This document shows positions 12,478-42,929 of a stretch of 64,000 nt of DNA, in pieces. The translations under genes were made by a program, and so were the position numbers. This DNA is from Acidimicrobiia bacterium (GTDB lineage: Bacteria > Actinomycetota > Acidimicrobiia > Spongiisociales > ZC4RG35). Each line of letters begins with the position of its first letter. Position 1 is the stretch's first letter. The stretch lies in NCBI GenBank assembly GCA_041744795.1, contig JBGTKD010000192.1, positions 13,628 through 77,627 of the forward strand. The letters are read 5' to 3'. The notes beneath the pieces are model-generated. The model was not told the DNA's origin. It saw only the letters and a program-made list of their open reading frames with translations, and made no database searches.

Positions 12478-12496
12478 TGGCTATCCTCGCCCACCG

Positions 12497-13627
12497 ATGA
12501 GTGAGTTCCTCGCTGCCGCTGCCAGCACGATGGACGTACCCGAGGCGCTGGTGAAGCGCTCCGCTGAGGCGCGTTCGAAATCGACTGGCGCATCGATCGA
12601 CGAGATCCTCCAGGCTTGGGCCGGTGGCGGTCCCGCTCCTGTCGGTTCTTCCTCGCCGACTCCGCCGGAACCGCAGACGGCTGTGGCGACGGAACCGTCT
12701 GCTCCAGTGGTCTCAGAGTCTGCCGAGGAGACCGCGCCTGCTGCCCAATCCGTTCCGCCAGTCGCTCCTGTCGCGGTGGCCCTGATGGACGAACCCGCTG
12801 AGGAACCTGTCGATGCCGCCCCGTTGCGCGAGCGTGTCCGCGTCGGGGGTCGTATCGGTATGGGATTCGGAGTGGTCGCTGCGGTGTTCGTGATGGTGTT
12901 CAGCGCCCAGTGGCTGCTTCCGCGAGCCGGCGTTGCGCCGTCGGAGACCGGAGACGTGGTGTTCGCCTTCTCGGTCGCGGCTGGCTCTCTACTGCTCGGA
13001 TCAGGCTTGATCGGAATCGCCTTGGGTGTGGCGGGGGCGGCGTTCATCCGGGCGGTGACCGGGTGGAAGAGCCCTGGCATGCGTCTGGTCTCCTCCACCA
13101 CTTCCTCGCTGGTGGTCGGCGCAGTGGCAGGACTTGTCACCGGAATCGTGGTGGCCTCTGTCGTTGCAGGGTCAGGGGTCGAAGACACATTGGATCCGAC
13201 CGTCACCGTCGTCCCGATGCTGGCCGCCCTTGTTTGGACTCTGTTTGGCTGGGTGGCGGGTGGTTGGATGATCGGGGCCTTGGTTCATGCTCTCGGCGTG
13301 CCCGACGGCCTCGACGAGGCAGAGAAGACCGAGGGCACCGTCGTTCAGCGCCGGTTGAGCGCCGCCTTCGGGTTGCCGGTCGTGGCGGCAGTCTCCATCG
13401 CTTTGATTGTGCTGCCCGCCGCCTGGGTGTTCATTCAGTTCCCTGGATGGGCGCCAGTTATCGCGATCTTCATCTCCGGCGCCATCATCGCCTTTGCTTT
13501 TCTGGCTGCCGCCCGCCCCGGCATGCGCATCACCGCGGGCGAGTTCCTGGTGGCGGCGGCGGGTGTAGGCGTGGTAGTCCTAATTCTCGCAAGCGTCCTC
13601 TTCACTCAAGGCGCCGGCGGCCACTAA
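12497..13627 (+). CDS. membrane protein with cytoplasmic N-terminal domain, Pro/Ala-rich linker and multi-TM C-terminus
   Basis: ATG 12497 (MSEFLAAAAS...). The PAPVGSSSPTPPEPQTAVATEP linker is followed by ~8 hydrophobic helices. Confidence 0.55.
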   Translation: MSEFLAAAASTMDVPEALVKRSAEARSKSTGASIDEILQAWAGGGPAPVGSSSPTPPEPQTAVATEPSAPVVSESAEETAPAAQSVPPVAPVAVALMDEPAEEPVDAAPLRERVRVGGRIGMGFGVVAAVFVMVFSAQWLLPRAGVAPSETGDVVFAFSVAAGSLLLGSGLIGIALGVAGAAFIRAVTGWKSPGMRLVSSTTSSLVVGAVAGLVTGIVVASVVAGSGVEDTLDPTVTVVPMLAALVWTLFGWVAGGWMIGALVHALGVPDGLDEAEKTEGTVVQRRLSAAFGLPVVAAVSIALIVLPAAWVFIQFPGWAPVIAIFISGAIIAFAFLAAARPGMRITAGEFLVAAAGVGVVVLILASVLFTQGAGGH

Positions 13628-13628
13628 A

Positions 13629-13680
13629 CCCGTTTTTGGCGTATCAACGTCGCGAAAATGACCCGTTCTGCGGTAGAGAA
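13629..13680. repeat. copy A of a ~50-nt intergenic repeat family (TTTTTGGCG[T/C]ATCAACGTCGCGAAAATGAC[C/G]CGTTCTGCGGTAGAGAA)
   Basis: Near-identical to 27037-27090 and 27855-27908 (2-5 mismatches over ~50 nt). It sits in the convergent gap between the membrane protein stop and the PNP stop. Confidence 0.8.
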
Positions 13681-13689
13681 GCGGCCTGC

Positions 13690-14514
13690 CTAGAGGCTGG
13701 GCAAGAGTTCGTCGAGTAGTAGGCCGAGACGGTCGGCGGCCTGTGCTGCAGCTTCGATGACCTCGTCGGCCGTAATCGGATTGGGCGAGATCCCGGCTGC
13801 CAGGTTCGTGCAGAGGGAGAGTCCGAGTACCTCGGCGCCCATGTGTCGAGCCGCAGTTGCTTCTGGCACGGTGGACATTCCCACCAGCCCTGCTCCGAGC
13901 ATCTTGGCCATTCGGATTTCGGCGGGCGTTTCGAACATGGGGCCATGCCACCAGAGGTAGACGGCCTCTCGGAGTTCCGAGCCGATACGGGCAGCAGCTG
14001 CATGCGCTTTGGCGCGCAACGCGGGCGTGTATACGTCAGTCATGTCAGGAAACTGTGGTCCCAGCCGCTCGTCGTTGGTCCCCATCAGAGGACTGATGCC
14101 TGCCATGTTGATGTGATCGGTGATGAGCACTAGGTCTCCCGCTTCAATCCCATCCCCGCATCCACCGGCCGCGTTCGTGAGGAGCACCTTCCGCGCGCCA
14201 GCCATAATCGCCGTTCGGACCGGGAACGTGACGGTCTCCATGCTGTGACCCTCATACGCATGCGGCCTTCCCGCCAAGAGCAGAACCTTGTTCTCGCCCA
14301 TCCTGACCGAGTAGGCAGTGCCGGAGTGTCCTACCGCCGTTGGGACGGCGAATCCGGGGAGTTCCGCGTATGGAACGGAAATGGCATCGGCGCGAGTGGA
14401 CGGGTAGGTACCAAGTCCGGTCCCGAATACAGCCACAACGTCATGGGTCGCGACCCCCGTCTTCTCGATAAGAATATCGGCGGTGGCACGGAGCCGGTCA
14501 TACAGGCTCGTCAT
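13690..14514 (-). CDS. punA: purine nucleoside phosphorylase, trimeric PunA/MTAP-type
   Basis: VFGTGLG phosphate loop, HAYEG, and MSTVPEA motifs of family-1 trimeric PNPs; 274 aa. Confidence 0.85.
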   Translation of the reverse strand: MTSLYDRLRATADILIEKTGVATHDVVAVFGTGLGTYPSTRADAISVPYAELPGFAVPTAVGHSGTAYSVRMGENKVLLLAGRPHAYEGHSMETVTFPVRTAIMAGARKVLLTNAAGGCGDGIEAGDLVLITDHINMAGISPLMGTNDERLGPQFPDMTDVYTPALRAKAHAAAARIGSELREAVYLWWHGPMFETPAEIRMAKMLGAGLVGMSTVPEATAARHMGAEVLGLSLCTNLAAGISPNPITADEVIEAAAQAADRLGLLLDELLPSL

Positions 14515-15236
14515 GCGATGAGTGCGTTCAGGGCGACCTCGATCATGACTTCGACCGCATCATGGACTACATCTCGATGTGGGTTGTAAATCTCGGCTGT
14601 CGTTCGGAGAGGGTTTCCGTCGACGGTTAGTAGCGCTCCTACTTCGATCCCTTGTAGTGATCCGATTACGAATAGGGCGGCGCACTCCATCTCGACTGCC
14701 ATTGCCCCGGATCGTGCCCACATTGCGAGTGATGAACCGCGAACGTCATGGGGGTAGAAGACCGCTCCGGTGAGCACGAGGCCTTCGTGAACCCGATGGC
14801 CGACGGCCGCCACGCTGCCACGGAGGGCCATAATCACGTCGGCCGATGCCACCGCGGGAAACTCTGGAGGCACTAGACCTGAGGTGAGGCCGTCGTAGCG
14901 GATCGCGCCTGTCGCGATGACGAGGTCCCCATCGGTCACCTCGGGTTGGAGGCCGCCACATGTACCGGCGCGGATGATCTTTGTGGCCCCGGCTTGGTGC
15001 AGTTCCTCGAAACACAACGCCGCTCCCGGCGCTCCGACGCCGTGTGACGAAATGGTCACCGCCACGCCCTTGTACTTCCCCTTGAAAGTCACGTACTCCC
15101 GGAACCGTCCGAGTTCAGTTACCTCCTCGAGACGTGAAGCCACGAGGGCTGCTCTAGCTGGGTCGCCAACCACAAGTGCTCGCTGCGGGATCTCACCAGG
15201 CATGATTCTCAGTATCGGGGTTGGCTCGGACATCAC
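14511..15236 (-). CDS. nucleoside phosphorylase, hexameric DeoD/Udp-type
   Basis: PNP_UDP_1 fold: SSHGVGAPGAALCFEEL...KIIRAGTCGGL and MEMECAALF. The stop overlaps the punA start. Confidence 0.8.
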   Translation of the reverse strand: MMSEPTPILRIMPGEIPQRALVVGDPARAALVASRLEEVTELGRFREYVTFKGKYKGVAVTISSHGVGAPGAALCFEELHQAGATKIIRAGTCGGLQPEVTDGDLVIATGAIRYDGLTSGLVPPEFPAVASADVIMALRGSVAAVGHRVHEGLVLTGAVFYPHDVRGSSLAMWARSGAMAVEMECAALFVIGSLQGIEVGALLTVDGNPLRTTAEIYNPHRDVVHDAVEVMIEVALNALIA

Positions 15237-17203
15237 ACCACCCTCTCGTTTCCGCCGTCGATTGGGATCTGTGCCCCGGTAGTGGCAGCGAATGTATCGC
15301 TACACAGGGCCGCGACAACTTGTCCGACAACTCTGGATGTGACTTCGGTCGAGAGCAGATTGCGCGTTTTGTATTCGTCGACTGTCATCGCGTACTTGGC
15401 CGCTCGTTCAGCCAGCAGCTCGTCGGTCCACAGCCCAGTGTCGAACACCCCATCGGGATGGACGACATTGACACGGATACCGTCATCGGCCCACTCGAGC
15501 GCCGCAACCCGGGCGAGTTGTGTCACCGCTGCCTTTGAGGCCGAATAGGCGGCCGCACCTTTCCCGGGTGCTGGCACGTTCTTCGACCCGACAATCACTA
15601 CACGCCCGCCGACAGGTGAAAGTGCCAGCAGCGGATGCACCGTTGCGAGGAGCATCGCAACGGCGTCGGTGTTCACGGTCTGGACCCTATCCCAGTTCTC
15701 CATGGACAGGCCAGCAACAGGGGTTGTCCGACCGAATATGCCGGCAGCGGAGATCACGAGATCAATTCCTCCGAACCGCTCGACAACCGCGGCGAGCGCC
15801 TTGGATTGGGCGTCGGGATCTGTGACGTCGACCTTCAGACCGAGCCAGGAGGGGCCAGAGAAGGCGGTGATGACCTCCTCGGCAAGGTCGAGGCCCGCGA
15901 CGGCACACCCCCTGGTCATCAGTTCGGCGGCGCATGCCCTGCCGATGCCTGAGGCTGCTCCGGTTACGACAGCCGCCATTCCATTGAACTCGGGCGGGGG
16001 GCCGGACCGACGAAGCTTGGCCTGTTCGAGATCCCAATATTCGCAGTCGAATAGATCGCTGGCGGGAAGGGCTTGGTAGCCCCCAAGGTGGTCTTCGGAT
16101 CGCTCCAACACAGGGATGGTGTGTCGGTAGATGTCGGCTGCAATATCGGCGGCTTTGGCGTTCTCGCCGACTGTGAGTACTCCGAGTTCCGGATTCACGA
16201 CTATCCGCGGAGCGGGATCGAGCATGGTGAGTTGGGTGCGACCGCGGTGTTGGTGGTCGGCAAAATATTGCCGGTAGTCCTCGACAAACTCCTCGACTTC
16301 TTCGCCCACCATTGGCTGGCGCTTGGTTCGGATCACGTGGTCCGGTGTCAGGGGTCCTCGGGTGGCCAAGTCGGCCAGATCCGGTCGATTGACGAAGCGT
16401 CTGACAAGGGCATCGGACATCCGACTCATGACCATCGGCCGCCCCGCTGCTTCGGAGATCTTTCTGCGGAGCCCTGCCAGGCGGGCGGGGTCGACCCGCG
16501 CCAGGGCTTCGCCGCTAGGCGAGGAGGATGGTGCGTGCTGGTCCAGCCATCGCTCTGCCTGCTCGATGAGCTCGACATGACGTTCGTAGGCAGCTCTGGT
16601 CGTGTCACCGAAGGTGAACAGGCCGTGGTTCATCAGCACCATGCCGATCGTGTGGTCGCCTGCCAGGTCCTTCCACATCGTTGACACCGTCTTGGCCAGG
16701 TCGAATCCGGGCATGATGTAGGGGATAACGACCACTGTGTTTCCGTAGACGGTCCGCACCTGATCCATCCCATCGGCAACGTTGGTCAGAGTGACAACCA
16801 CGTCTGCGTGTGAGTGCTGCACGGCAGGATGTGGCAGGAACGCATGCAGCAGGCTTTCCACCGACGGGGCGGGCGCATCCGGGTCGAGCTTGGCGCCAGC
16901 CAACTCGCGCATCATGTCGGGATCCGACAGGGTCTCGAGTTGCAGCAGCTGCTGAAGGCGCGAAAGCCGCAGTGGCGGGAAGCCGGGAGCCTCGATCGAG
17001 CCCAGATCCCAGCCTGATCCCTTCACGTACAGAGCGTCCACTGTGGCGCCGGTGATGTCTTCGAACGGCGCTTTAACGGATGTGTTGCCGCCCCCGTGCA
17101 GTACGAGCGAAGGGTCCGACCCGATCAGCCGAGATCCGTACACGCATTCCCCAAGAGCGCCCGGGAAGCCAGCAGCGTCGGCTTCGTTCCAGCGGCTTTC
17201 CAT
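15233..17203 (-). CDS. bifunctional class II aldolase (rhamnulose-1-P aldolase-like) / short-chain dehydrogenase fusion
   Basis: 656 aa. N-terminal class II aldolase/adducin domain (SVESLLHAFLPHPAVQHSHADVVVTL) and C-terminal SDR domain (AVVTGAASGIGRA Rossmann; YSASKAA catalytic Y-x3-K). Architecture as in YuxG/RhaEW-type fusions. Confidence 0.85.
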   Translation of the reverse strand: MESRWNEADAAGFPGALGECVYGSRLIGSDPSLVLHGGGNTSVKAPFEDITGATVDALYVKGSGWDLGSIEAPGFPPLRLSRLQQLLQLETLSDPDMMRELAGAKLDPDAPAPSVESLLHAFLPHPAVQHSHADVVVTLTNVADGMDQVRTVYGNTVVVIPYIMPGFDLAKTVSTMWKDLAGDHTIGMVLMNHGLFTFGDTTRAAYERHVELIEQAERWLDQHAPSSSPSGEALARVDPARLAGLRRKISEAAGRPMVMSRMSDALVRRFVNRPDLADLATRGPLTPDHVIRTKRQPMVGEEVEEFVEDYRQYFADHQHRGRTQLTMLDPAPRIVVNPELGVLTVGENAKAADIAADIYRHTIPVLERSEDHLGGYQALPASDLFDCEYWDLEQAKLRRSGPPPEFNGMAAVVTGAASGIGRACAAELMTRGCAVAGLDLAEEVITAFSGPSWLGLKVDVTDPDAQSKALAAVVERFGGIDLVISAAGIFGRTTPVAGLSMENWDRVQTVNTDAVAMLLATVHPLLALSPVGGRVVIVGSKNVPAPGKGAAAYSASKAAVTQLARVAALEWADDGIRVNVVHPDGVFDTGLWTDELLAERAAKYAMTVDEYKTRNLLSTEVTSRVVGQVVAALCSDTFAATTGAQIPIDGGNERVV

Positions 17204-17220
17204 CGATCGGTCTCCTTGAT

Positions 17221-18006
17221 TCAGTAGGGGGTGTCGCCGCCATCGACGTTGATTGCCTGACCGCGAATGACGACGGCGGCATCCGAGAGAAGAAACGCAA
17301 CGACCCGGCCCACTTCGATCGGCTGGACCTTGCGGCCGAGTTGGGCGGGACCCATTCCGGCTAAGAGTTCTTCAGAGGGGACGTTCAATCTCGGGGCCAG
17401 CCAATCGGCCACTCCGGCGAGCATCGGCGTATCGACCCCTCCTGGGCAAACGGCGTTGACGTTGATCCAGTCAGCGGCCCACTCCAGAGCGAGCGTACGC
17501 GTGAGGTTGATCACGGCAGCCTTGGAGGCGTTGTAAGCCGCCATGTTCTTGTAGCCGACCTTGCCGCAGTTCGAGGCCACGTTGACGATTGCTCCACCTC
17601 CGGATTCGCGCAGGTGGCGTCCCACTGCCTGGGCCATGACGAAGCTTCCTGTCACGTTGACCGCCAGCTCCCGGTCAAAGGCGTCGGCGGAGGAGTCCCA
17701 CGCCGCGTCAAGGGTCACAATTCCGGCGTTGTTCACGATCCCGTCCAGTCGGCCGAAGTGATCTATTGCCGCCCGGACGCAGGATTCAGCATCGTCGACG
17801 GACACGACGTTGCCTTCGACCGGCAGCGTCCTGTCTCCGTTCGGGTCGGTGCGCTCAGCCACAGCCTGGGCTGGCTTGAGGCGCAAATCGAAGAGGACGA
17901 CCCGCCCGCCCTGTTCGAGAATCGCCGCGGTCACTCCCTCGCCGATTCCCCCGCCAGCACCTGTCACGATGTAGGAACGGTCTTGCAGGTCCATCCGGGT
18001 TACCAC
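17221..18006 (-). CDS. SDR family oxidoreductase
   Basis: TGAGGGIGEG Rossmann motif, NNAG, and YNASKAA catalytic triad region. Confidence 0.8.
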   Translation of the reverse strand: MVTRMDLQDRSYIVTGAGGGIGEGVTAAILEQGGRVVLFDLRLKPAQAVAERTDPNGDRTLPVEGNVVSVDDAESCVRAAIDHFGRLDGIVNNAGIVTLDAAWDSSADAFDRELAVNVTGSFVMAQAVGRHLRESGGGAIVNVASNCGKVGYKNMAAYNASKAAVINLTRTLALEWAADWINVNAVCPGGVDTPMLAGVADWLAPRLNVPSEELLAGMGPAQLGRKVQPIEVGRVVAFLLSDAAVVIRGQAINVDGGDTPY

Positions 18007-18752
18007 GTAGTGCTCGTGAGGACGCCGCCGTCGACCACCAGGTCAATGCCTGTAATCCAACGCGAGAGCTCCGAACAAAGGAACACGCAGGCATCGCCGA
18101 CATCTTCGGGGGTACCCAAGCGGCTAAGTGGAGCTGCGGCCCGCCACCGTCCAATGCCTTCGGGCCATTGTTCTTCGATTCCGGGCCGGGCGATCAGACC
18201 AGGCGAGACCGAATTCACCCTGACCCCATGCGGTCCCCAGGCCAACGCTGCTGCCCTGGCGTGCATGACGAGCCCTGCCTTAGACACCGCATAGTGGCCG
18301 TGGACCGGTGTGGGATGGCGCGCCTCGATCGAAGCGATGTGCACGATCGAACCCCCGCCCGACTCCTTCATGGCGCGTGCAGCAGCCTGCGTGAGTAGAT
18401 GGGTGGCGGTGAGGTTTACATCGATCATTTCGGTCCACTCCTCCTCGGTGAGATCGACGAAAGGTACGACCGGTTGGATACCAGCATTGTTGACGAGCGC
18501 GTCGATCCGTCCGTGTGCTGCGACGGTGGCGCCAATCACTGCTTGGGCGCTCCCCGGATTGGCGAGGTCGGTTGACAGCACTGTTACCCCAGGTTCGTCG
18601 ACCGACGAGGTGCGAGTGACTGCGACCACCGTGGCTCCTGTGGCCGCCATACGCTGCACGATTCCAGCGCCGATACCCCCGCCTGCGCCGGTGACCACGG
18701 CCACCTTGCCGGTCAGATCCAGCATCTCGGCGGGCGTGACGATGTCGGTCAT
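18000..18752 (-). CDS. SDR family oxidoreductase
   Basis: Start ATG 18752 (MTDIVTPAEMLDLTGKVAVVTGAGGGIGAG) with an AGGAAG RBS, NNAG, and YAVSKAG. The ORF-track start at 18914 is an Arg-rich extension. Confidence 0.8.
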   Translation of the reverse strand: MTDIVTPAEMLDLTGKVAVVTGAGGGIGAGIVQRMAATGATVVAVTRTSSVDEPGVTVLSTDLANPGSAQAVIGATVAAHGRIDALVNNAGIQPVVPFVDLTEEEWTEMIDVNLTATHLLTQAAARAMKESGGGSIVHIASIEARHPTPVHGHYAVSKAGLVMHARAAALAWGPHGVRVNSVSPGLIARPGIEEQWPEGIGRWRAAAPLSRLGTPEDVGDACVFLCSELSRWITGIDLVVDGGVLTSTTW

Positions 18753-19204
18753 GGATCTTCCTTTCGGATGAATCGGGCAATGTCGGCTGCGGCGTCCGGG
18801 TGGGACATAGTCAATTGTGAAGCGACGCCTAGTTCGAATCCGTCCGGGTCGAATGGCGGGGCCATCGTTGTACCGACGAGCGACCAGTCGCCCGTCGTTG
18901 CTGCTCCCATCCACACTCCGGCTTCGACACCGACAAACGGGCGTTGACCGGAGGCGAGGTCGTCACCGAGTAGAGGACGCCGTGTTTCGCCGCTTGGATC
19001 CAAGAGGAGCATTTCCACCGGAGCCCCGGCGTAGTGGTGCCAGAGCTCGGCGATATTCAGCCTATGCATCGCGGAGAAGTCGCCCGGTCGGAGTAGGAAG
19101 TAGATGCCGGACCCGTGATCGTCACGCCAGGTCTGGCGCCACTTGCCTCCTTCCACGGGCATGGTGCCCAGTCCCAGCAACGAGATGACGTCCTCTGATG
19201 TCAT
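18749..19204 (-). CDS. cupin-fold protein (DUF985-like)
   Basis: 151 aa. GIYFLL...HRL..AELWHHYAGAP pattern typical of DUF985 cupins. Translationally coupled to neighbours. Confidence 0.55.
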   Translation of the reverse strand: MTSEDVISLLGLGTMPVEGGKWRQTWRDDHGSGIYFLLRPGDFSAMHRLNIAELWHHYAGAPVEMLLLDPSGETRRPLLGDDLASGQRPFVGVEAGVWMGAATTGDWSLVGTTMAPPFDPDGFELGVASQLTMSHPDAAADIARFIRKEDP

Positions 19205-20502
19205 GGGATAAGTCGCGCAGCCCGCTGATCGAGCTCTCGGATGGCCTCGTCGGTGTCGATCGTCGTCACTTTGGCGTCGTCGACGACCTGTCGTCCCGCC
19301 ACCCAGACCGAGCGGACTGCGCTCGGCGAACCTGACCAGACCACCCTCGACACCGGATCATCTTCGTCCTGGATCACCGGATGGAAGCTCCCCACATCGG
19401 CCAGCGCCACCATGTCTGCCTGCGCCCCCGCCGTCAGTCGCCCGAGGTCGGGACGACCGATGGCTTCGCCGGCTCCGCCGGTAGTCATCCACAGAGCTCG
19501 CGAAGTTGGAAAACATTGGGCGTCCTGATGACGCAGGCGCGCCAGGCGAATGGCGGTGCGCATCTCCTCGAACAAATCGAGGCGATGATGGGAGGCAGGT
19601 CCGTCTGTTGCGATCCCGATCTTGATCCCCGCCGCTCTCATCTCTTCGACCCGGGCGATCCCGGAGGCATGCTTGGAATTCGAGCATGGACAGTGGGCCA
19701 CAGACACTCGATTCTGGCCGAAGACGGCAATGTCATCATCCGTCAGCCACACGCCGTGGGCAGCCAGAGCTCGGCCCTCGAGCAAGCCGAGGGACTCGAG
19801 GTATGCGGGAGCAGACATTCCTGTCTTCTCCCGGACAGCAGCGTCCTCCCATTCCTGTTCGGCGACATGGATATGAACGAGCATGTCCGCCTCATTGGCG
19901 ACCTCGGCCAGCCTGCTCAGGCATTTGTCGCTGACCGACCAGGCAGCGTGAGGACCCAAACCGATTTCTACGAGGGCGTTCGAAGACCAGCGCTCGCGCA
20001 TGGCCAGCATTTCTTCGACTTGCTCCTGCCAGTGCCCGAAGGCAGAGAGCGCGGGGTCTTCGATGATCGGTGCGGTGACGACGGTGCGTAGCCCTGTTTC
20101 CGAAGCACCCTCGGCGACGGCTTGGCCGTGAAAGTACATTTCGACGGTTGTCGTGATGCCATTGCCCAGGAGCTCGATTGCTCCGGCTCGCATGCCAGCT
20201 CGTACATCGTCAGGGGTGAGTTTTGCTTCGCGAGGCCACATGACTTCGTGCAACCAGCGATCAACAGGTAGGCCTTCGCCCGCGCCTCGTAACAGAACCA
20301 TCGGTGTGTGGCAGTGGATGTTGACCATGCCGGGCATCAGCAACCCGTCGATATGGTGGACGGTTGCTCGGGTGTCCGGCGCGTCGCTCAGTGGTCCGGA
20401 CCATACGACGGTGCCCTCATCGACGTCGACGGCTCCTTGAAAGATTGGCTCGGCATCCTCGTCGGCCATCGTGAGAAGGACATCGGCGACGAAGCGATCC
20501 AC
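19201..20502 (-). CDS. amidohydrolase, MTA/SAH (or nucleobase) deaminase-like
   Basis: 433 aa. Metal-binding HxH (NIHCHTPM), with downstream H and D (TDGPASHH...D) as in the ATZ/TRZ–MtaD–guanine deaminase family. Specificity is not determinable from sequence. Confidence 0.75.
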   Translation of the reverse strand: MDRFVADVLLTMADEDAEPIFQGAVDVDEGTVVWSGPLSDAPDTRATVHHIDGLLMPGMVNIHCHTPMVLLRGAGEGLPVDRWLHEVMWPREAKLTPDDVRAGMRAGAIELLGNGITTTVEMYFHGQAVAEGASETGLRTVVTAPIIEDPALSAFGHWQEQVEEMLAMRERWSSNALVEIGLGPHAAWSVSDKCLSRLAEVANEADMLVHIHVAEQEWEDAAVREKTGMSAPAYLESLGLLEGRALAAHGVWLTDDDIAVFGQNRVSVAHCPCSNSKHASGIARVEEMRAAGIKIGIATDGPASHHRLDLFEEMRTAIRLARLRHQDAQCFPTSRALWMTTGGAGEAIGRPDLGRLTAGAQADMVALADVGSFHPVIQDEDDPVSRVVWSGSPSAVRSVWVAGRQVVDDAKVTTIDTDEAIRELDQRAARLIP

Positions 20503-20566
20503 TTGCGAACCTCCGGGTTGTCAGACAAGCTACTGGTAGCATGATTGGGCTGTCAATCGAGGACAC

Positions 20567-21295
20567 ATGACTGTCGAGTCACTGGGATCTGGCCCCACGT
20601 TGTCGGCCAGGATCGCCGCCGACCTTCGGCTTCGAATTGAATCCGGGGAGTGGACGCCTGGTGAGAAGATGCCGGGCGAACACGACCTGTCCGCTTTCTA
20701 TCAGGTTTCGAGGGCGACCGTCAGAACGGCCCTGCAGGATCTCGAGAGCCGAGGGCTCACAGTGACGAGGCATGGACTCGGCACCCTCGTTACCGCCCAG
20801 GGAGGATCGCGACAGGCGGACCTGCGACGTCTCGAGTCGATGACGGACACGATCGCCCGACAGGGCCGCTTGCCGGGAATGGTCTACCGGTCGATCGCGC
20901 TGCGTGCTGCAACCGAGGTCGAGATTTCCAAGCTGGCAGTAGGCCCCGGCGCGGAAGTACTAGCGACGGAGAGGTCCCTCACAGCAGATAGCGAGACAGT
21001 GGCATTCTCTTACGATGTCATTCCCCGGGCAGTCTTTCCTGCCGAGTTCGACCCAAGCGAGGTCTCGGGCTCGTTGTTTGCCCTGCTCGAACGCCACGGG
21101 GTGCGAGCCGTCGTGGCGCTCACCGAGATCCATGCCACGCACGGAGAGCACATCGGATGGGGCGACCGGCCAGCCAACGCCTCTTATCTTCTCCTGGACC
21201 AGGTCCACTCGGACTCTCGCGGGGTCCCGGTCGCCTTGGCCAGTACCTACTTCATTGAAGGTCGGTTTCCGTTTGGATTGGTGCGGCACCGCTGA
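20567..21295 (+). CDS. GntR/HutC-family transcriptional regulator (wHTH + UTRA effector domain)
   Basis: N-terminal GEKMPGEHDLSAFYQVSRATVRTALQDLESRGL HTH and a C-terminal UTRA-like domain. It is divergent from the amidohydrolase. Confidence 0.85.
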   Translation: MTVESLGSGPTLSARIAADLRLRIESGEWTPGEKMPGEHDLSAFYQVSRATVRTALQDLESRGLTVTRHGLGTLVTAQGGSRQADLRRLESMTDTIARQGRLPGMVYRSIALRAATEVEISKLAVGPGAEVLATERSLTADSETVAFSYDVIPRAVFPAEFDPSEVSGSLFALLERHGVRAVVALTEIHATHGEHIGWGDRPANASYLLLDQVHSDSRGVPVALASTYFIEGRFPFGLVRHR

Positions 21296-21383
21296 CCGGT
21301 TGCGTATGGATTCTGTTGACGACATACCGCTCCCTCACCTAGCCTCGGATCCGAGCTTGTCTGACAACCCGGAAGGCCTGGAA

Positions 21384-22445
21384 ATGGATCGACTCGGCGA
21401 CCGATCGCTCGACTGGATCGATGATGCCGTTGTGCTGGTCGATCAGACTCGGTTGCCGGGAACCTTCGAGACGCTTCGCATCGAGGACGTACCTTCAATG
21501 GTCGCCGCGATCCGCAGGCTGTCGGTGCGGGGTGCTCCCGCGATCGGGGTGGCGGGCGCTTTCGGTGTCGCTCTCGCCTTTCGTCAGTATGGCGATACCG
21601 GTGACGAGTTCGAAACGGCAGTGGCTTCCTTGCGCGACGCTCGACCGACTGCCGTCAACTTGGCTCGGATGGTTGACCGTTGCGCCGCAGTCGCCCCTGA
21701 AGGATTTGACCGAGTCCTCGCGGAGGCATGCGCGATACGAGACGAGGAGCTGGCGGCGTCCATCGCGATGGGCGAATTGGGTGCCGATCTCGTGGAAGAG
21801 ATGTCGGACGAGATCCCGACCACGGTGATGACGATCTGTAACACAGGTGGGCTCGCCACCGTCGAGCGCGGCACAGCCCTGGCCGTAATCCAGACACTTC
21901 ATGAGCGCGGCGAGCTGCGGGAGGCACTTGCCCTGGAGACGCGCCCGTTGCTTCAGGGGGCTCGCCTTACGACCTGGGAGCTCGCCAGGATGGGCGCACC
22001 GCACCGCTTGGTGGTCGATTCGGCAGGGCCCTTCCTCCTCGCCCGGGGAGCGGCCCAAGTCGTTCTCACGGGAGCGGACCGCATTGCTGCAAACGGCGAC
22101 ACCGCAAACAAGATCGGCACCTACGCCTTAGCTCTGGGCGCGGCCCGCGCCGGAGTGCCGTTCATAGTCGTAGCTCCTGAGACCACGGTCGACATGGCGA
22201 CCAGCCACGGGAGTGACATCGAAATCGAAGATCGGGGTGCGTCTGAGGTCGTCTCGATCGCCGGAGTCGCAATCGCGCCTTCGGGCACATCTGCTGTGAA
22301 CCCGGCTTTCGATGTGACACCCGCCGACTTGATCACGGCCATCGTGACCGACCGGCGCGTTATCAGGCTTGACAAGGGAGATACCCCCGAGACGGTGCCA
22401 CTCGGTTCGCTGGCAGGAATGTATAGGAAAGAGAGGAAGAGCTGA
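21384..22445 (+). CDS. mtnA: S-methyl-5-thioribose-1-phosphate isomerase (eIF2B-like sugar-phosphate isomerase)
   Basis: LVDQTRLP N-terminus, GAPAIGVAGAFG, CNTGGLAT, and GADRIAANGDTANKIGTY motifs. GGAAGG RBS before ATG 21384. 353 aa. Confidence 0.85.
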   Translation: MDRLGDRSLDWIDDAVVLVDQTRLPGTFETLRIEDVPSMVAAIRRLSVRGAPAIGVAGAFGVALAFRQYGDTGDEFETAVASLRDARPTAVNLARMVDRCAAVAPEGFDRVLAEACAIRDEELAASIAMGELGADLVEEMSDEIPTTVMTICNTGGLATVERGTALAVIQTLHERGELREALALETRPLLQGARLTTWELARMGAPHRLVVDSAGPFLLARGAAQVVLTGADRIAANGDTANKIGTYALALGAARAGVPFIVVAPETTVDMATSHGSDIEIEDRGASEVVSIAGVAIAPSGTSAVNPAFDVTPADLITAIVTDRRVIRLDKGDTPETVPLGSLAGMYRKERKS

Positions 22446-23470
22446 TGAAACGAAATCTTCGATGGAGCGTGCCACTGCTGGCGCTGGCGATGGTCCTGGC
22501 GGCCTGCGGAGGTTCGGATGACGTAGTCGACGAGCCCGATGGGCCTACCTTTATTTACGTCACGCCTAACCCGATCGGTGTGAACAAGTTTCTCGAACTT
22601 GGCCAGGTCGGCACTCAGCGTGCTGCGGAGAAGCTCGGTGGTACCTGGAGGACTTTCGAGTCGACCGATGACTCCAGCCGACGGGCGAACATCGAAGCAG
22701 CCGTCGACGCCGCCCCCGACGTGATTGTCCTCACAACCTTCACTCTGGTCGAGCTGGCCGACGAGTTCTCGAAAGCCAACCCCGACCAGGAGTTCATCCT
22801 GATCGACACTTGCCCGGAGGCGCCCGCCCCCAACTTGCACTGTGGAGTGTTCAGGGAGCAGGAAGGTGCGTATCTGCTGGGGATCATGGCCGGGCATCTG
22901 AGCGAGTCGAAGCAGGTTGGTTCGGTAGGCGCTCTCGACATCCCGTTCCTGCATCGTTACACGGATAGCTTTGCTCTCGGTGCCCAGTCGGTGGATCCTT
23001 CGATCACCGACACCCAAGTGTGGATCGGTGGTGACAATCCGTTCTCCGATCCGGCGCGGGCAAAGGAACAGGCTCTGGCTGTCGCGGCTCAGGGTTCGGA
23101 TCACATATTCGCGGTCGGAGCCGGATCGAACGGCGGGATCTTCGAGGCCGCTGTCCAACAGGGATTCTTCAGCTACGGCGTAGACGTGAATCAGTGCCCG
23201 GATGCACCCGGCAGCATTGTCGATAGCAACATGAAGCTGGTGGATGTGCTCGTCGAACAGCTCATCGACCAGATCCTGGCGGGAACGGCCGGATCTGTGG
23301 TCTCCTTCGGCTTGGCCGAGGGTGGAACCGGGGTCATGGCACTGTCCGACGATCTGGCTGGCAGCCAGTGTGTGATCGCCGAGCATCCTGACGTGGTGGA
23401 GGCGGTTAAGGCAGCAGCCCAGGGAATTATCGATGGGTCCATCGTTGTTCCTGACCCACTGTTCGGCTGA
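22445..23470 (+). CDS. BMP-family (PnrA/Med-like) ABC substrate-binding lipoprotein, probable nucleoside binder
   Basis: Signal plus lipobox (LAACGG) and a periplasmic-binding fold typical of basic membrane protein family nucleoside receptors. Confidence 0.8.
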   Translation: MKRNLRWSVPLLALAMVLAACGGSDDVVDEPDGPTFIYVTPNPIGVNKFLELGQVGTQRAAEKLGGTWRTFESTDDSSRRANIEAAVDAAPDVIVLTTFTLVELADEFSKANPDQEFILIDTCPEAPAPNLHCGVFREQEGAYLLGIMAGHLSESKQVGSVGALDIPFLHRYTDSFALGAQSVDPSITDTQVWIGGDNPFSDPARAKEQALAVAAQGSDHIFAVGAGSNGGIFEAAVQQGFFSYGVDVNQCPDAPGSIVDSNMKLVDVLVEQLIDQILAGTAGSVVSFGLAEGGTGVMALSDDLAGSQCVIAEHPDVVEAVKAAAQGIIDGSIVVPDPLFG

Positions 23471-23479
23471 ACACACCGG

Positions 23480-25003
23480 ATGACAATCGAGCTGGAACTC
23501 CGCGGCGTCACCAAGCGGTTCCCCGGCGTCGTCGCCAACGACGCCGTAGACCTCACGGTGCGCGCCGGGGAGGTCCACGCCGTCGTTGGCGAGAACGGGG
23601 CAGGCAAGACCACACTGATGTCGATCCTTTACGGGTTGTTTCCCCCGGATGAGGGCGCGATCCTCATCCGGGGCGAACCCGTTAACTTCTCGTCTGCGCT
23701 CGATGCGATCAATGCCGGGCTAGGCATGGTCCACCAGGCGTTCAAGCTCTTCCCCACCCTCACAGTCGCAGAGAATGTGGTGTTCCGCTCCGAGCCGACC
23801 CGGAGAGGGATGATCGACAGGGCGGCCAGTGTGGCCCGAGTGCGGGAGTTGGCCGAGAGGTATGGACTGGCTGTGGACCCCATAGCCACAGTCGAGAGCC
23901 TCCCTGTCGGAGTGCTACAGCGGGTCGAGATCCTCAAAGCGCTCTACCGCGACGCCCAGATCTTGATCCTCGACGAACCGACCGCGGTCCTCACCCCTCA
24001 AGAGCGGGACATGCTCTTCGACATCATCCACCGACTCAAGGATTCGGGCCGCACGATCCTATTCATCACCCACAAGCTGGGTGAGGTGATGGCTGTCTCG
24101 GACCGAGTCACCGTCTTGCGTAACGGCCGGTCTGTCGCCGAGCTCGTTACCGACCAGACGACACCTGCGGAGATCACGCGTCACATGGTCGGTCGGGACC
24201 TCGACCTGACAAAGAGAGCGTTGCCTCATTCCGCTGGAGCTGTCGTTCTATCCGTTGAGGAGTTGGCCGCGATCGGTGAACACGATCGGGTGGTGGTCGA
24301 GGATGTGACCTTTGTCGTGCGTTCCGGCGAGATAGTCGGAGTGGCCGGTGTGGCGGGCAACGGTCAATCGGAGATGATCGAGGCTGTGACGGGTTTGCGG
24401 CCGGTTGAGAGTGGCTCTATCCATCTCGACGGTGTCGACATCACAGAGGCAGATGTGGCTTCGCGGCGGCGCCGGGGGCTGGCGTACATCCCCGAGGACC
24501 GTCATGGCGTGGGGACGACCCACCATGGGACAGTGTCAGAGAACCTTCTGCTCGGTCATCATCGCGAGGAAGGCATCGAGCGCCGAGGTTGGTTTGCTCT
24601 GGACGAAATCCAGCGCCGAGCCGAGAGCCTTATCGAACGTTTCGGGATAAAGACCCCCTCGGTGTCTACCCGGGTGTCGACGCTCTCCGGAGGAAACCTC
24701 CAGAAGCTCGTTGTCGCGAGGGAACTCGCCTACGACGCCCCGCTGTTGATCGCGGAACAGCCAACCCGCGGGGTCGACATCGGGGCGATCCAGTTCATCC
24801 ATCGCCAACTGCTCGACTACCGGGACGCGGGAGGGGCCGTTTTGATGGTTTCTGCCGAACTCTCCGAGATCCTGGCGCTCAGCACACGAATACTGGTCAT
24901 GTTCGAGGGCCGGATTGTCGCCGAACTCGACCCTGCTGCGGTCGACGAACCACAGATCGGCCGTTACATGACAGGATCGCACTTGGACGCCGCCCGTGCG
25001 TGA
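23480..25003 (+). CDS. ABC transporter ATP-binding protein with two nucleotide-binding domains
   Basis: Two Walker A motifs (GENGAGKTT; GVAGNGQSE) and two LSGG signatures; 507 aa. Confidence 0.9.
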   Translation: MTIELELRGVTKRFPGVVANDAVDLTVRAGEVHAVVGENGAGKTTLMSILYGLFPPDEGAILIRGEPVNFSSALDAINAGLGMVHQAFKLFPTLTVAENVVFRSEPTRRGMIDRAASVARVRELAERYGLAVDPIATVESLPVGVLQRVEILKALYRDAQILILDEPTAVLTPQERDMLFDIIHRLKDSGRTILFITHKLGEVMAVSDRVTVLRNGRSVAELVTDQTTPAEITRHMVGRDLDLTKRALPHSAGAVVLSVEELAAIGEHDRVVVEDVTFVVRSGEIVGVAGVAGNGQSEMIEAVTGLRPVESGSIHLDGVDITEADVASRRRRGLAYIPEDRHGVGTTHHGTVSENLLLGHHREEGIERRGWFALDEIQRRAESLIERFGIKTPSVSTRVSTLSGGNLQKLVVARELAYDAPLLIAEQPTRGVDIGAIQFIHRQLLDYRDAGGAVLMVSAELSEILALSTRILVMFEGRIVAELDPAAVDEPQIGRYMTGSHLDAARA

Positions 25004-26102
25004 GTTGGTCGACCGCCGGCGCCTCGGCGGTTGGGCGCGCAGGGTGGCCGTCAGCCCTGTGACTTTCTCGATTGTGCTCGCGTTCGGGGTGGGGGCCGCC
25101 ATCGTCGCTCTCACCGGCCAGGACCCGTTCGTCGCGTATCGGGAGATGTTCGTTGGGGCGGTCAGCGGGTCAGGGTTGCGCAACACTCTCGCCCGGTCGA
25201 TCCCCATCATCGGAATGGCACTGGCGGTCTCGGTCGCCTTCCGTGCCGGAGTCATCAACCTGGGTGGCGAGGGTCAGATGGTTGTGGGCGGTTTGGCCGG
25301 GACGGTGGTGGCGATATACACCCCGGGTCCCGGCGCGTTTGTCATTCCGCTTGCGCTCTTGGCTGGAGCGGCGGCGGGTGCGGCTTGGGCGCTCTTGCCC
25401 GCCTTCGGACAGACCAAGCTCGCCCTTCCGATTCTGATCACGAGCCTGCTCCTGAACTACGTGGGTAGGGCGATCACCGGATACATGGTGCGGTTCCCGC
25501 TGGCAGACGTTTCGGTGACTCTGGCCACGACGAGGCAGGTTCCCGAGACGGCCAGGATGCCGAAGATGCCCGTTTTCGGGGGTGTGAGCCTGTCGCTTGT
25601 TCTCGTCGTGGTCCTTGTCGTGGCCCTGGGTGTCGTGTATTCGCGAAGTGTCGTCGGATACGAGACTCGGATGGCCGGTTACAGCGGTCGTTTCGCCCGC
25701 TACGGCGGCGTGGCGGTTGAGCGCCAGACGCTCGGCGTGATGGCGGTCGCCGGAGCGATCGGCGGTGTGATCGGCACCCATCTCATAATCGGTGACGCGT
25801 TGCGGTTCATCGAAGGTGAACTCGTCCTCAGTGGCTTGGCCTGGACTGGTCTTCTCGTTTCGCTTCTGGCGGCGAATCGGCCCGTCTTCATCCTCTTGGC
25901 CGGCCTCTTGTTCTCGGGGCTGCAGATCGGTGGCCTCGCCATGCAGAGGAATGCTGACATTTCCTGGAGGCTCGCCCAGGTGCTCCAGGCTCTCGTCATC
26001 ATTGCGGTTGCCAGTCGCCTCAGCCTTCGCAGGCGCGCCAAACGCAAGGATGTTGCGGTGGAAGAGGTGACGGCCGAACCGGCTCGGGTGGGTGAGATCT
26101 GA
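24996..26102 (+). CDS. ABC transporter permease (BPD inner-membrane component)
   Basis: Polytopic hydrophobic protein. It overlaps the ATPase stop. Type matches the BMP/sugar systems. Confidence 0.8.
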   Translation: MRELVDRRRLGGWARRVAVSPVTFSIVLAFGVGAAIVALTGQDPFVAYREMFVGAVSGSGLRNTLARSIPIIGMALAVSVAFRAGVINLGGEGQMVVGGLAGTVVAIYTPGPGAFVIPLALLAGAAAGAAWALLPAFGQTKLALPILITSLLLNYVGRAITGYMVRFPLADVSVTLATTRQVPETARMPKMPVFGGVSLSLVLVVVLVVALGVVYSRSVVGYETRMAGYSGRFARYGGVAVERQTLGVMAVAGAIGGVIGTHLIIGDALRFIEGELVLSGLAWTGLLVSLLAANRPVFILLAGLLFSGLQIGGLAMQRNADISWRLAQVLQALVIIAVASRLSLRRRAKRKDVAVEEVTAEPARVGEI

Positions 26103-27022
26103 TGTTTGAACAGCTTTTCGACTCCGCCCTGCTCGACTCGGCGGTCCGCGCCATGATCCCGATCCTTCTCGCCGCACTGGGTGGGATGATCTGTGAGAGG
26201 GCGGGCGTGTTCCAGATCTCGCTCGAGGGAATGATGGTGGCTGGGGCATTTGCCGCCGTCGCCGGGTCCTACTTTGCGCAGAGTTCCTCTATGGGAATCG
26301 TTTTCGCGATCGGCGCGGGTGTGGCGGTGTCGCTGATCCTTGCCTACGGCGCGGTTACGCGAAGAGGCGATCCGATCGTTCTCGGCATTGCCATCAACCT
26401 TTTCGCGTTCGGGATCACCGGGTTTCTCCTGCCTCAGATCTTTGGCGTCCGCGGGGTGTTTCAACATCCCCGCATCGACGGTCTTGATCGCATTCCCATC
26501 CCGTTCCTCTCCGACATTCCGGTCGTGGGACCGGTGTTGTTCTCGAACACCGCCACCGCCTACCTCGCTTTTCTCCTCGTGCCGGGACTGTGGTTCTTCC
26601 TCTTTCGGACTCCGATTGGCTTGCGGCTGCGCGGGGTGGGCGAACGTCCGGCGGCGGCCGAGACACTCGGTGTCTCCGCCACCCAGTACAAGTACATGGC
26701 AGTGATCGCCTCCGGGGTTCTCTCGGGTCTCGCCGGCGCTCAACTGGCGCTGGGCAATGTCGTCCAGTTCGCCGAGAATATGTCCAGTGGCCGTGGCTGG
26801 GTTGCGGTTGTGGCCGTCATGTTGGGTCGGGCTCACCCGGTCGGTGTACTGGGAGCGAGTCTGCTGTTTGCCTTCGCTGAAGCACTCGGTTTCCGGTTCC
26901 AGGGCAACGGCCTACCTGTTCAGATCACCGACGCTCTGCCGTTCGTAGTGACGCTGCTTGCGCTGGTCATCGCGCGCAAGAGGTTCTCGCGCCTCCTCGA
27001 CCTCACCACCGCCTCCACCTAG
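26102..27022 (+). CDS. ABC transporter permease (second subunit)
   Basis: Polytopic protein. Translationally coupled (ATGA overlap). Confidence 0.8.
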   Translation: MFEQLFDSALLDSAVRAMIPILLAALGGMICERAGVFQISLEGMMVAGAFAAVAGSYFAQSSSMGIVFAIGAGVAVSLILAYGAVTRRGDPIVLGIAINLFAFGITGFLLPQIFGVRGVFQHPRIDGLDRIPIPFLSDIPVVGPVLFSNTATAYLAFLLVPGLWFFLFRTPIGLRLRGVGERPAAAETLGVSATQYKYMAVIASGVLSGLAGAQLALGNVVQFAENMSSGRGWVAVVAVMLGRAHPVGVLGASLLFAFAEALGFRFQGNGLPVQITDALPFVVTLLALVIARKRFSRLLDLTTAST

Positions 27023-27036
27023 CCAGCCACAGCCAT

Positions 27037-27090
27037 CCCCGTTTTTTGGCGCATCAACGTCGCGAAAATGACGCGTTCTGCGGTAGAGAA
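27037..27090. repeat. copy B of the ~50-nt intergenic repeat family
   Basis: Best match to copy A. It lies in the convergent gap between the permease stop (27022) and the DDAH-like stop (27097). Confidence 0.8.
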
Positions 27091-27096
27091 CGCGTG

Positions 27097-27852
27097 TCAG
27101 GACCGGATTCGGACCGACAGACAGGTGACGCACCCTTCCAGTTTCTGGAACTCAGAGACGTCGACGGTTGCCACGTCGTACCCGCGGGCTTCGATCAGTG
27201 CCACCGACCCTGGACAGTCGTCGGCCATCAGTACTCGCCCGTCGCCAAGGTCTACGACAGCCGAACCAGACTCCTCGGGAACGCCGAGAAAGTTCTCGAA
27301 CATCGTTGGATTGTCGACGAGCGGCTCGTGTCCGATAACGGTGCCGTCCGGCAGGGCGGTAACCGCCGACTTCAAATGGAGGACCTTGGTCACCGGAACG
27401 GCCACCACGTTGCGGTCAGGGAGAAGGGCGGCGAGTTGATCGATCCCAGCCTGGTTGGTGCGATCTGACAAACCCACGTAGACGGTGGAACCGACTTTGA
27501 GCACGTCGCCTCCATCAAGTGTGGCTGGCGCGGCGATGTGGGCGACGCGACTGACGTGGCCGGCGATCGCCCGCTCTGCACCGTCGGTCTCGGGTCTGCG
27601 TTGCTCGGCTCCTGGCCGGGTGATGACCGCCAAGTCACCAAAGACGACAACGGCATCTTCGATGAAGACCGCATCAGGCCAGTCGTCGGAGGTCTCGACC
27701 TCCTCGACCCGCCACCCGGTGGTTCTGAGCACCTCGACATAACCGAGCCACTGCTCCACAGCCAGCGGGTAGTCGACCGCGCTTCGTTCGATATGAGTCA
27801 CCAACCCTTGAGTAAGCAACGGCCCCGGCCGTCGCACTAGCGCGATTGTCAT
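27097..27852 (-). CDS. dimethylarginine dimethylaminohydrolase / amidinotransferase-superfamily hydrolase
   Basis: 251 aa. The C-terminal catalytic Cys context LEGCVTCLSVR and the overall pentein-fold pattern indicate the DDAH family. Confidence 0.7.
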   Translation of the reverse strand: MTIALVRRPGPLLTQGLVTHIERSAVDYPLAVEQWLGYVEVLRTTGWRVEEVETSDDWPDAVFIEDAVVVFGDLAVITRPGAEQRRPETDGAERAIAGHVSRVAHIAAPATLDGGDVLKVGSTVYVGLSDRTNQAGIDQLAALLPDRNVVAVPVTKVLHLKSAVTALPDGTVIGHEPLVDNPTMFENFLGVPEESGSAVVDLGDGRVLMADDCPGSVALIEARGYDVATVDVSEFQKLEGCVTCLSVRIRS

Positions 27853-27854
27853 GA

Positions 27855-27908
27855 CCGCTTTTTAGCGCATCAACGTCGCAAGAATGACGCGTTCTGCGGT
27901 AGAGAAGT
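27855..27908. repeat. copy C of the ~50-nt intergenic repeat family
   Basis: The most divergent copy (TTTTTAGCGCATCAACGTCGCAAGAATGACGCGTTCTGCGGTAGAGAA). It abuts the DDAH-like start codon and precedes the BrnT-like gene. Confidence 0.75.
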
Positions 27909-27959
27909 GATCCGGGGCGCGACGGAACCCGCAGGGCGTCACCTCTGCAATCGTCAACA

Positions 27960-28230
27960 AGTGTTGACGATTGCCCACTTCTTGGCGTATCGTTGGAATG
28001 TGGACATCGAGGCGAGTGCGCGCAAACACGGTGTCCCGGACGAAGACATGGTGCATGCGTTGCGACATCATTGGCGAGCATTCGAGACCGGCGACCCGGC
28101 GGTGGTGATGTTCATTGGTCCGTCGTCCACCGGCGAACCTTTGGAGATCGGTGTCGTCACGGATGCGGATGGAACGGCGATCATCCACGCCATGAAGGCC
28201 CGAGATAAGTTCCTGAGAGGTTGGAAGTGA
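27960..28230 (+). CDS. BrnT-like (DUF497) putative toxin
   Basis: YRWNVDIEASARKHGVPDEDMVHAL resembles the BrnT N-terminal WDxxKxxxNxxKHGVxFEEA motif, and AIIHAMKARDKF resembles RIISARKA. I recalled these motifs from memory and did not run a profile search. Possible GTG/TTG starts at 27960-27981. Confidence 0.45.
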
Positions 28231-28490
28231 ACGAAACACGAGCCGAACGAGCGACCGTCCTGGAAGACTGGGCTGACCGAGTTCTCATTGAGGACTTGGT
28301 GGCCGTCGACACCGACGTCTTGCGGATGATCGCCGAACTGGTTGATCAGCGGAACGAGGTCGACGGGGAACTCACGCAAGCCGTCCGTTCAGCCCGCGAA
28401 GCTCATCGCAGCTGGTCAGAAATCGGAGCGATGCTTGGCGTGTCGAAGCAGGCCGCCCAGCGAAAGTACTCGGCAAAGACGTCCGCCTAA
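28227..28490 (+). CDS. putative HTH antitoxin partner
   Basis: GTG start overlaps the upstream stop (GTGA). The C-terminal WSEIGAMLGVSKQAAQRKY is a helix-turn-helix. Length ~87 aa. Confidence 0.4.
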   Translation: MNETRAERATVLEDWADRVLIEDLVAVDTDVLRMIAELVDQRNEVDGELTQAVRSAREAHRSWSEIGAMLGVSKQAAQRKYSAKTSA

Positions 28491-28536
28491 GAGCCGTGTC
28501 GTAACTCCACCCGCCACTAGCCCAGTGGCTGGGCCG

Positions 28537-42884: not shown

Positions 42885-42929
42885 GCGCTTCGAGGGCCGG
42901 TACGAGCCGTTCTGTCGATTCAAGGCTCC

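Follow-up and report, generated by a model that had tools for sequence, protein, structure and literature searches.

What maintains a short repeat at three intergenic sites of one bacterial contig, nearly identical in sequence, and does it have a function there? The question is raised by a 64,000-nt stretch of contig JBGTKD010000192.1 (assembly GCA_041744795.1) from an uncultured Acidimicrobiia bacterium. This whole stretch is called the window below, and the three plus-strand copies of the repeat are called c1, c2 and c3. We suggest that the copies have been inherited vertically and are partly decayed, and that they belong to a family of ~48-nt hairpin repeats, restricted to one lineage and resembling repetitive extragenic palindromic (REP) elements. 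The copies would probably act as plus-strand hairpins in 3' untranslated regions (UTRs) and as recombination substrates. About half of our confidence goes to this reading, and the remainder is spread over the alternatives weighed below.

The repeat is sharply defined within the window. Its consensus matched exactly three sites with at most three mismatches, all on the plus strand (13633-13680, 27043-27090 and 27859-27906), and no chance match occurred in 100 shuffles. Over 48-49 nt, pairwise identity is 95.8% for c1-c2, 93.8% for c2-c3 and 89.8% for c1-c3. A sequence-only reading of the window had described three intergenic copies of ~50 nt with 90-96% identity, and the consensus scan, the shuffles and the pairwise identities bear this out. 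Alignment with the flanks included extends the conserved block to ~52-58 nt, and the flanks of the three copies are mutually dissimilar. No fourth copy was found in the 64 kb by nhmmer at E<=100 or by a covariance model at E<=1.

Each of the three copies lies between genes. Copy c1 (13629-13686, plus strand, covariance-model score 70.4 bits) occupies a 62-nt convergent gap between a membrane-protein gene (12317-13627, plus strand) and punA (13690-14514, minus strand). Its 5' side lies behind the stop codon of the membrane-protein operon and its 3' end 4 nt from the punA stop (13690). Copy c2 (27039-27096, plus strand, 74.5 bits) occupies a 74-nt convergent gap between a nucleoside ATP-binding cassette (ABC) permease gene (26102-27022, plus strand) and a dimethylargininase gene (27097-27852, minus strand), with its 3' end directly adjoining the dimethylargininase stop (27097). 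Copy c3 (27855-27912, plus strand, 74.8 bits) begins 2 nt from the start codon of the same gene (27852, minus strand), its T-run end lying 2-6 nt away. The gap of c3 is unidirectional, and in relatives the far end of c3 faces the CtaG stop. The gene between c2 and c3, previously labelled DDAH-like, is a true dimethylargininase according to its NCBIfam equivalog match (375 bits vs a cut-off of 340). Each copy has two conserved blocks. Block 1 (TTTTT-R-GCG-YATCAACGTCGC, also written TTTTT-R-GCGCATCAACGTCGC; 21 nt) forms the 5' hairpin arm and is the most conserved part (plus strand, 13633-13653 in c1, 27043-27063 in c2 and 27859-27879 in c3). Block 2 (TCTGCGGTAGAGAA) forms the 3' arm of the outer and middle stems (plus strand, 13667-13680, 27077-27090 and 27893-27906, respectively).

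Exact-pattern scans of genome, metagenome and viral collections gave no match to the repeat. Relatives were reached via the neighbouring proteins, dimethylargininase and the punA product, and their contigs (designated L with a number) were then compared. A protein from the middle of the region places the window in uncultured Acidimicrobiia, with the nearest species representatives 78% identical at the protein level. In three further lineages (L083, L084-86 and L087-89) orthologues of both c2 and c3 flank the dimethylargininase gene as they do in the window, and the encoded enzymes are 83-90% identical to that of the window. Orthologues of c1 were found in the membrane-gene/punA gap of L090 (10829-10886), L091 (10482-10539) and L092 (1440-1497), the last being a fourth source with c1 and having a punA 99% identical to the window's. 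The c3 orthologues come from L083, L084/86, L087-89 and L094 (9941-9998), and the stretch CCGCTTTTTAGCGCATCA is invariant in all of them. The dimethylargininase gene is bracketed by copies, as in the window, in L083, L084, L087 and L094. With all three sites occupied in at least four lineages, the window included, the comparison of contigs indicates vertical inheritance. The motif is thus conserved in relatives and not confined to the window. The earlier suggestion of an insertion mark fails if a recent insertion was meant, as the sites are inherited across lineages whose synonymous sites are about half diverged. Recent mobile insertion is likewise ruled out by the orthologous conservation.

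The degree of conservation varies along the element. Orthologue identity is 0.93 in block 1 (21 nt), 0.82 in block 2 (14 nt) and 0.68 in the intervening 13 nt, and the bases immediately outside the element are unconserved. Fourfold-degenerate sites of four neighbouring genes are 48-72% identical between these lineages. The contrast of block 1 with these synonymous sites argues that the element is under selection. On this comparison, both blocks are under purifying selection, and the 13 nt between them evolve about neutrally. Paralogues within the window differ by 3-5 nt and orthologues by 6-13 nt. Moreover, c1 and c2, which lie 13.4 kb apart, have lineage-specific substitutions in common in each of three genomes. 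Because paralogues are closer than orthologues and c1 and c2 have such substitutions in common, the copies must exchange sequence within a genome. The sequence comparison hence portrays old, constrained copies undergoing concerted evolution.

A family of covarying hairpins

A gapless alignment of 26 family copies fits one long hairpin, with 81.6% of cells paired. Seven pairs are altered on both sides, and this compensatory change extends over 38 cells. The covariation score of 0.224 compares with 0.149 +/- 0.012 in shuffles; none of 500 shuffles reaches 0.224, and slid registers give at most 0.111. The two short palindromes noticed in the sequence-only reading are better taken as parts of this one long hairpin, which is partly decayed in the window and covaries across the wider family. 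The hairpin opens at its 5' end with a T-run followed by AGCG and a spacer of 4 nt. Next come a variable inner stem of 9 bp whose loop measures 4 nt, then GCGG, and last the purine run AGAGAA, the pairing partner of the T-run. Of the two strands, the one that carries the T-run 5' has 51 G-U cells vs 22 A-C cells. It folds better than its complement, as G-U pairs are possible on this strand alone. For the L087/L091 lineage, the fold of the plus strand reaches z = -3.5 to -5.7, and the minus strand is weaker overall.

Elements of equal length and with equal ends are present in L094 (dimethylargininase 72% identical), L093, L006 and L007. Their inner stems are perfect or near-perfect and genome-specific. 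The family has two subtypes, TTTTTAGCGCA... and TTTTTAGCGGGGCA... In L007, a perfect 24-bp palindrome (CTTTTTAGCGCACAGCGGGTGCAGG/CCTGCACCCGCTGTGCGCTAAAAAG; -42 kcal/mol) stands directly after the dimethylargininase stop, at 17565-17620. This palindrome has the arms of the window element and looks like its undecayed form. The window copies are decayed members of the family, in which the 5' arm is kept almost letter for letter and the inner 3' arm drifts or shifts register.

A covariance model, R1, was built from the 26 copies and searched against 1.65 Mb of related loci. All 39 matches fall in the window clade and in L006, L007, L093, L094 and L095, and none in 75 other Acidimicrobiia or actinobacterial loci. 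The matches outside the window clade come from four further metagenome-assembled genomes. The repeat family thus appears restricted to a small group of uncultured Acidimicrobiia. L094/L095 have 6 copies within 11 kb. Tail-to-tail doublets are found in L093 (8438-8574), L094 (20568-20704 and 9692-9998) and L006 (3268-3408), and the window clade has singletons only. Placement is mostly behind genes. According to a hand tabulation from gene tables, the T-run end lies at most 45 nt after the stop of the gene reading into it at ~11 of 17 distinct sites, with elements starting 2-45 nt after stop codons. Exceptions are the c3-type copies and doublets in a divergent gap.

Gene order and possible roles of the copies

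Gene order differs among relatives next to the copies. In the window clade the order is membrane operon, c1, salvage cluster, c2, dimethylargininase gene, c3 and CtaG. The direct copies c1 and c2 bracket a 13.3-kb nucleoside and methylthioadenosine salvage cluster running from punA to the ABC permease (13690-27022), and the direct copies c2 and c3 bracket the dimethylargininase gene (27097-27852, minus strand). In L007 and L093, the dimethylargininase gene sits between the membrane operon and punA, at the opposite side of the cluster, and is flanked by family elements. These flanking copies are inverted in L093, not direct. L006 is missing the gene. L094 lacks the salvage cluster at this locus and has unrelated genes instead (LiaF-like, PspC and Germane), which lie between two direct copies in the salvage-cluster position. 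Finally, the window alone carries a two-small-ORF (open reading frame) insertion with a palindromic operator between c3 and the CtaG stop at 28537 (27913-28536, plus strand). The block is missing at the c3/CtaG junction in every relative and is the sole difference at these junctions. Since the gene-order differences fall at element copies, the breakpoints coincide with the elements. The repeat does therefore mark boundaries of differing gene content, as had been proposed from the sequence alone.

If the copies are decayed members of a REP-like family, transcription of c1 and c2 would supply the final ~50 nt of the mRNAs of two plus-strand operons, the membrane-protein operon and the mtnA-to-ABC-permease operon. 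The RNA of either copy would fold as a 3'-terminal hairpin, which would limit 3' exonuclease decay as well as read-through into the convergent punA operon and dimethylargininase gene. Such a 3'-UTR hairpin is the most likely role for c1 and c2 because of their post-stop placement, their orientation and the G-U asymmetry confined to one strand. REPs are placed likewise near gene 3' ends (PMC3733652). Copy c3 would be the remaining half of a doublet arranged tail to tail between CtaG and the dimethylargininase gene. It would now lie inside the immediate 5' leader of the latter and may have been recruited into this leader, a position that may account for the invariance of c3. Being near-identical, directly repeated and dispersed, the copies would also serve as substrates for homologous recombination and so give rise to the gene-order differences at these sites.

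Several observations weigh against this reading. The window copies are no better folded than shuffles (z = +0.4, -1.8 and -1.1), and the window clade alone yields a weak RNAalifold consensus with zero compensatory change. In this clade the 5' arm is near-invariant and its inner 3' partner drifts, which points to sequence-specific recognition and not to structure alone. There is no U-tract behind the hairpin on either strand, and the T-run of the plus strand stands ahead of the hairpin. Hairpins without U-tracts do not cause termination by mycobacterial RNA polymerase (PMC3993855). Only 2 of the ~9 convergent gaps of the window contain a copy, and c3 has no plus-strand gene upstream. Model R1 found no copy in 16 further kb of the L094 genome, so genome-wide dispersal of the family is conjectural.

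The sequence-specific conservation and the shifting gene blocks could instead mean that the repeats are DNA-level recombination sites, att-like or integron-like, at which a putative recombinase or RecA excises, inserts and exchanges whole gene blocks lying between conserved flanking genes. Conservation would then reflect recognition by that machinery. The three direct copies bound two segments, the arrangements in L007, L093 and L094 are such as recombination would give, and the window-only two-gene insertion adjoins c3. The substitutions common to c1 and c2 across 13.4 kb would also fit, as would a 5' block kept in sequence and not merely in pairing. We nevertheless regard this explanation as unlikely. 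No integrase, transposase, Y1/RAYT or other recombinase was found among the ~66 ORFs (~60 genes) of the whole window, and the arrangement is stable over ~50% synonymous divergence in four lineages. The inverted copies around the gene in L093 are not a product of simple excision and integration, operon ends are a natural coincidence point of rearrangement breakpoints and 3' hairpins, and the fit to integron attC sites is poor, with AAC/GTT cores 16 nt apart and a weakly matched consensus. More doubtful is the specific proposal that the repeats are the sites of an operon-scale cassette-exchange system. Here the membrane-protein operon, the dimethylargininase gene and the cta operon would be conserved anchors with one copy each. 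The 13-kb salvage cluster, the LiaF/PspC block, the dimethylargininase gene and the toxin-antitoxin-like pair would be the blocks excised, re-inserted or swapped, and a putative trans-acting recombinase or single-strand DNA transposase would recognize the conserved 21-nt block. A similarly doubtful alternative centres on c3 as the functional copy, acting as promoter or 5' leader of the minus-strand dimethylargininase gene, with c1 and c2 as passive paralogues kept alike by gene conversion from c3. Copy c3 adjoins the start codon, and conservation declines away from it. The first ~18-25 nt (on the minus strand GCGACGTTGATGCGCTAAAAAGCGG, then ATG) are invariant in all orthologues, even in L094 with its 72% identical protein. 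TAAAAA, the T-run end as read on the minus strand, stands 6-7 nt upstream of ATG, where the -10 element of a leaderless mRNA would be expected, and the same position is variable in c1 and c2 (TGG/TAG, TTCTT), fitting importance at c3 only. However, TAAAAA is without the terminal T of actinobacterial -10 hexamers, no conserved -35 occurs at the correct spacing, and a promoter scan gives no promoter-like site within any of the three copies. Furthermore, block 1 is retained in c1 and c2 at orthologous sites but the diagnostic variants of c3 are missing there, so conversion from c3 is not obvious, and the wider family is found mainly after stop codons.

The repeats might also be duplex-DNA binding sites for a nucleoid-associated or topological factor, with the copies serving as landmarks of domain or operon boundaries by analogy with bacterial interspersed mosaic elements (BIMEs), to which IHF and gyrase bind. 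Two conserved sequence parts with a neutral 13-nt spacer of fixed length would suit such a protein, as would copies at both ends of the 13-kb cluster and doublets in sister genomes. We consider this quite improbable, given that there is no candidate protein, that the GntR-family regulator of the cluster uses another operator, and that compensatory changes together with the G-U strand asymmetry indicate a folded single strand. Very little weight is given to the 3' half acting on the minus strand as an intrinsic terminator for punA, dimethylargininase and CtaG, by means of a hairpin (CGCGTTCT/AGAACGCG) followed by TCATTTTC. In the ancestral arrangement every copy does follow a minus-strand gene, the stem of c2 has 9 bp ahead of a T-rich tract, and this tract stays T-rich despite sequence variation. 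Yet the stem is weak or absent in win_c3, L084_c2, L084_c3 and L087_c2 (-2.6 to -5.8 kcal/mol), relies on non-conserved flanking bases and is not reported by a terminator scan. The columns of the supposed T-tract are loop and inner stem of the long hairpin in the wider family.

Rejected identities and other features of the window

A number of other identities were tried for the repeat and rejected. The claim that the element is a repeat and neither an operator nor a canonical terminator holds, and REP-like, one of the names offered with it, is the closest description. A scan for canonical intrinsic terminators (a GC-rich stem with a U-tract directly behind) gave no site at any copy, and the minus-strand candidate is not conserved. 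Resemblance to a tRNA D-arm had been suggested, and a small-RNA family had been considered. ARAGORN calls nothing at the copies, and no Rfam family or small-RNA signature was found. Rfam has no gathering-score match in the window and nothing relevant at E<=10, where only chance-level snoRNA and hammerhead matches appear. Neither result supports a tRNA-derived element or a known RNA family. ARAGORN does call a tRNA-Ser(cga) at 17785-17860 (plus strand), inside a short-chain dehydrogenase (SDR) gene on the opposite strand, which is probably a false positive. Copies c1 and c2 continue the reading frame of the upstream stops, and the differences between them looked synonymous. A coding sequence, or a peptide made by stop-codon read-through, was rejected nonetheless: variation across 14 copies has no 3-nt periodicity, and an A/G variant makes an in-frame TAG. 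Phage or plasmid origin was rejected for want of any meaningful match.

Promoters and operators fared no better as candidates. A scan finds no sigma-70 promoter on either strand at the copies, and any correctly spaced -35 lands in the neutral spacer. A promoter for an extracytoplasmic function (ECF) sigma factor was rejected on comparing TCAAC-N15-CGTTC in the element with GGAAC-N17-CGTC at the resident ECF sigma gene, and CGT is lost in 5 of 14 orthologues. The ECF sigma factor gene itself lies at 37434-37970 (minus strand), with its GGAAC-N17-CGTC site just upstream of the start (region 37971-38040). The gene is followed by a 439-aa ORF without Pfam match, possibly encoding an anti-sigma factor. 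The divergent gap between lgt and the ECF sigma gene contains a GC-rich 29-nt direct repeat (38077-38105 and 38182-38210, 90% identical), each copy of which has hairpin potential. The operator of the GntR-family regulator was also dismissed as an identity for the repeat, this operator being a different 20-nt inverted pair. The two members of the pair are identical, have the core TTGTCAGACAA and lie at 20512-20531 and 21354-21373, on either side of gntR. The pair is likely the operator of the cluster's GntR/HutC-type regulator and has no relation to the repeat.

The insertion next to c3 has features of its own. Its small ORFs (28000-28230 and 28221-28490, plus strand) matched no Pfam or NCBIfam family, which leaves the BrnT-like label previously given to one of them without support. 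Upstream of the two ORFs stands a perfect 12+12 palindrome (CAATCGTCAACA/TGTTGACGATTG, 27948-27975), and a promoter-like TTGACG-18-TATCGT lies 6 nt upstream of the GTG at 28000. Elsewhere in the window, two adjacent genes have a 57-nt direct repeat (42830-42886 and 43441-43497, 82% identical) at or close to their ends. A related metagenome-assembled genome, L006, has a tandem array of ~125-nt units (14839-15388, units 88-97% identical) between the aldolase-SDR and mtaP genes, and this array is absent from the window. Two Logan contigs of run SRR28170463 with window genes end inside copies (L001 1726-1769 in c2, L002 999-1052 in c1). The breaks may reflect extra genomic copies or strain variants such as L092. 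Copies c1, c2 and c3 have no 31-mer common to all three.

Comparison with known repeat systems

Conserved hairpin repeats of this kind bear on two questions: whether such elements are selfish, domesticated or a mixture of the two, and what defines the ends of operons in high-GC bacteria without canonical terminators. The family provides a small, tractable REP-like case in uncultured Acidimicrobiia, in which the same three sites can be traced across lineages. These sites display purifying selection, gene conversion over 13 kb, decay of pairing with one arm retained, and gene-order change at the copies.

Integron attC sites share some of these properties. In both systems, gene blocks are set apart by direct repeats whose ends are conserved and whose structured centre varies. 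One copy here adjoins a toxin-antitoxin-like pair, and the cargo between equivalent repeats varies among genomes. In an attC site, however, at least ~50 nt separate the R''/R' cores (RYYYAAC ... GTTRRRY), and an integron integrase is encoded nearby. CATCAAC and GTTCTGC in the present element match 5 of 7 core positions each and lie 16 nt apart, and the window has no integrase or attI. What would count as cassettes here is a 13-kb cluster of two operons plus a gene closing the cta operon, in an arrangement that is stable across lineages.

The TRIT motif of Mycobacterium (Gardner et al. 2011, the RNIE paper; PMC3152330) is similar in other respects. It is an actinobacterial, lineage-restricted hairpin motif of ~50 nt with strongly conserved sequence and structure, narrowly placed at stop codons and without a canonical U-tract. 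Its authors suspected an additional binding factor (PMC3152330). TRIT is palindromic and mostly bidirectional, occurs in 147 copies per genome and begins inside coding sequence at ~-8. The present element is set apart by description, as it is asymmetric (only one strand has the G-U pairs), occurs in few copies and begins just past the stop.

The closest resemblance is to REP, BIME and REPIN elements, the GTAG- and CGTC-tagged families described by Di Nocera et al. 2013 (PMC3733652). Like REPs, the element is a short imperfect palindrome folding as a stem-loop, as found here on 26 family copies. It is extragenic and lies in convergent and unidirectional gaps, in the relatives as in the window, REPs being mostly within ~20 nt of ORF 3' ends. 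The consensus is genome-specific with compensatory change between species, and copies are associated with points of rearrangement. Singletons make up the window clade, and inverted doublets are seen in L093, L094 and L006. The differences concern length (48 nt vs 20-40 nt for REPs) and the missing unpaired GTAG/CGTC tag, in place of which the element has a conserved end (TTTTTAGCG; TT.TT.GCG is the family-invariant end). GTAG does occur in subtype I only, inside the 3' arm, where GCATGAGAGAA or GCAGACCAGAA stands in subtype II. The copies seem to be few and clustered locally, with 3 copies in 64 kb of the window and, in L094, 6 in 11 kb and 0 in the next 16 kb. Furthermore, no REP-associated tyrosine transposase (RAYT) is found among the window ORFs, the window copies are conserved more in sequence than in pairing, and the host belongs to the Acidimicrobiia. 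Documented cases of REP-like elements come mainly from Proteobacteria, and their nearest actinobacterial analogue is the poorly understood TRIT. On present evidence, the repeat of the window is a conserved structured repeat of the REP-like kind and not a new kind of system.

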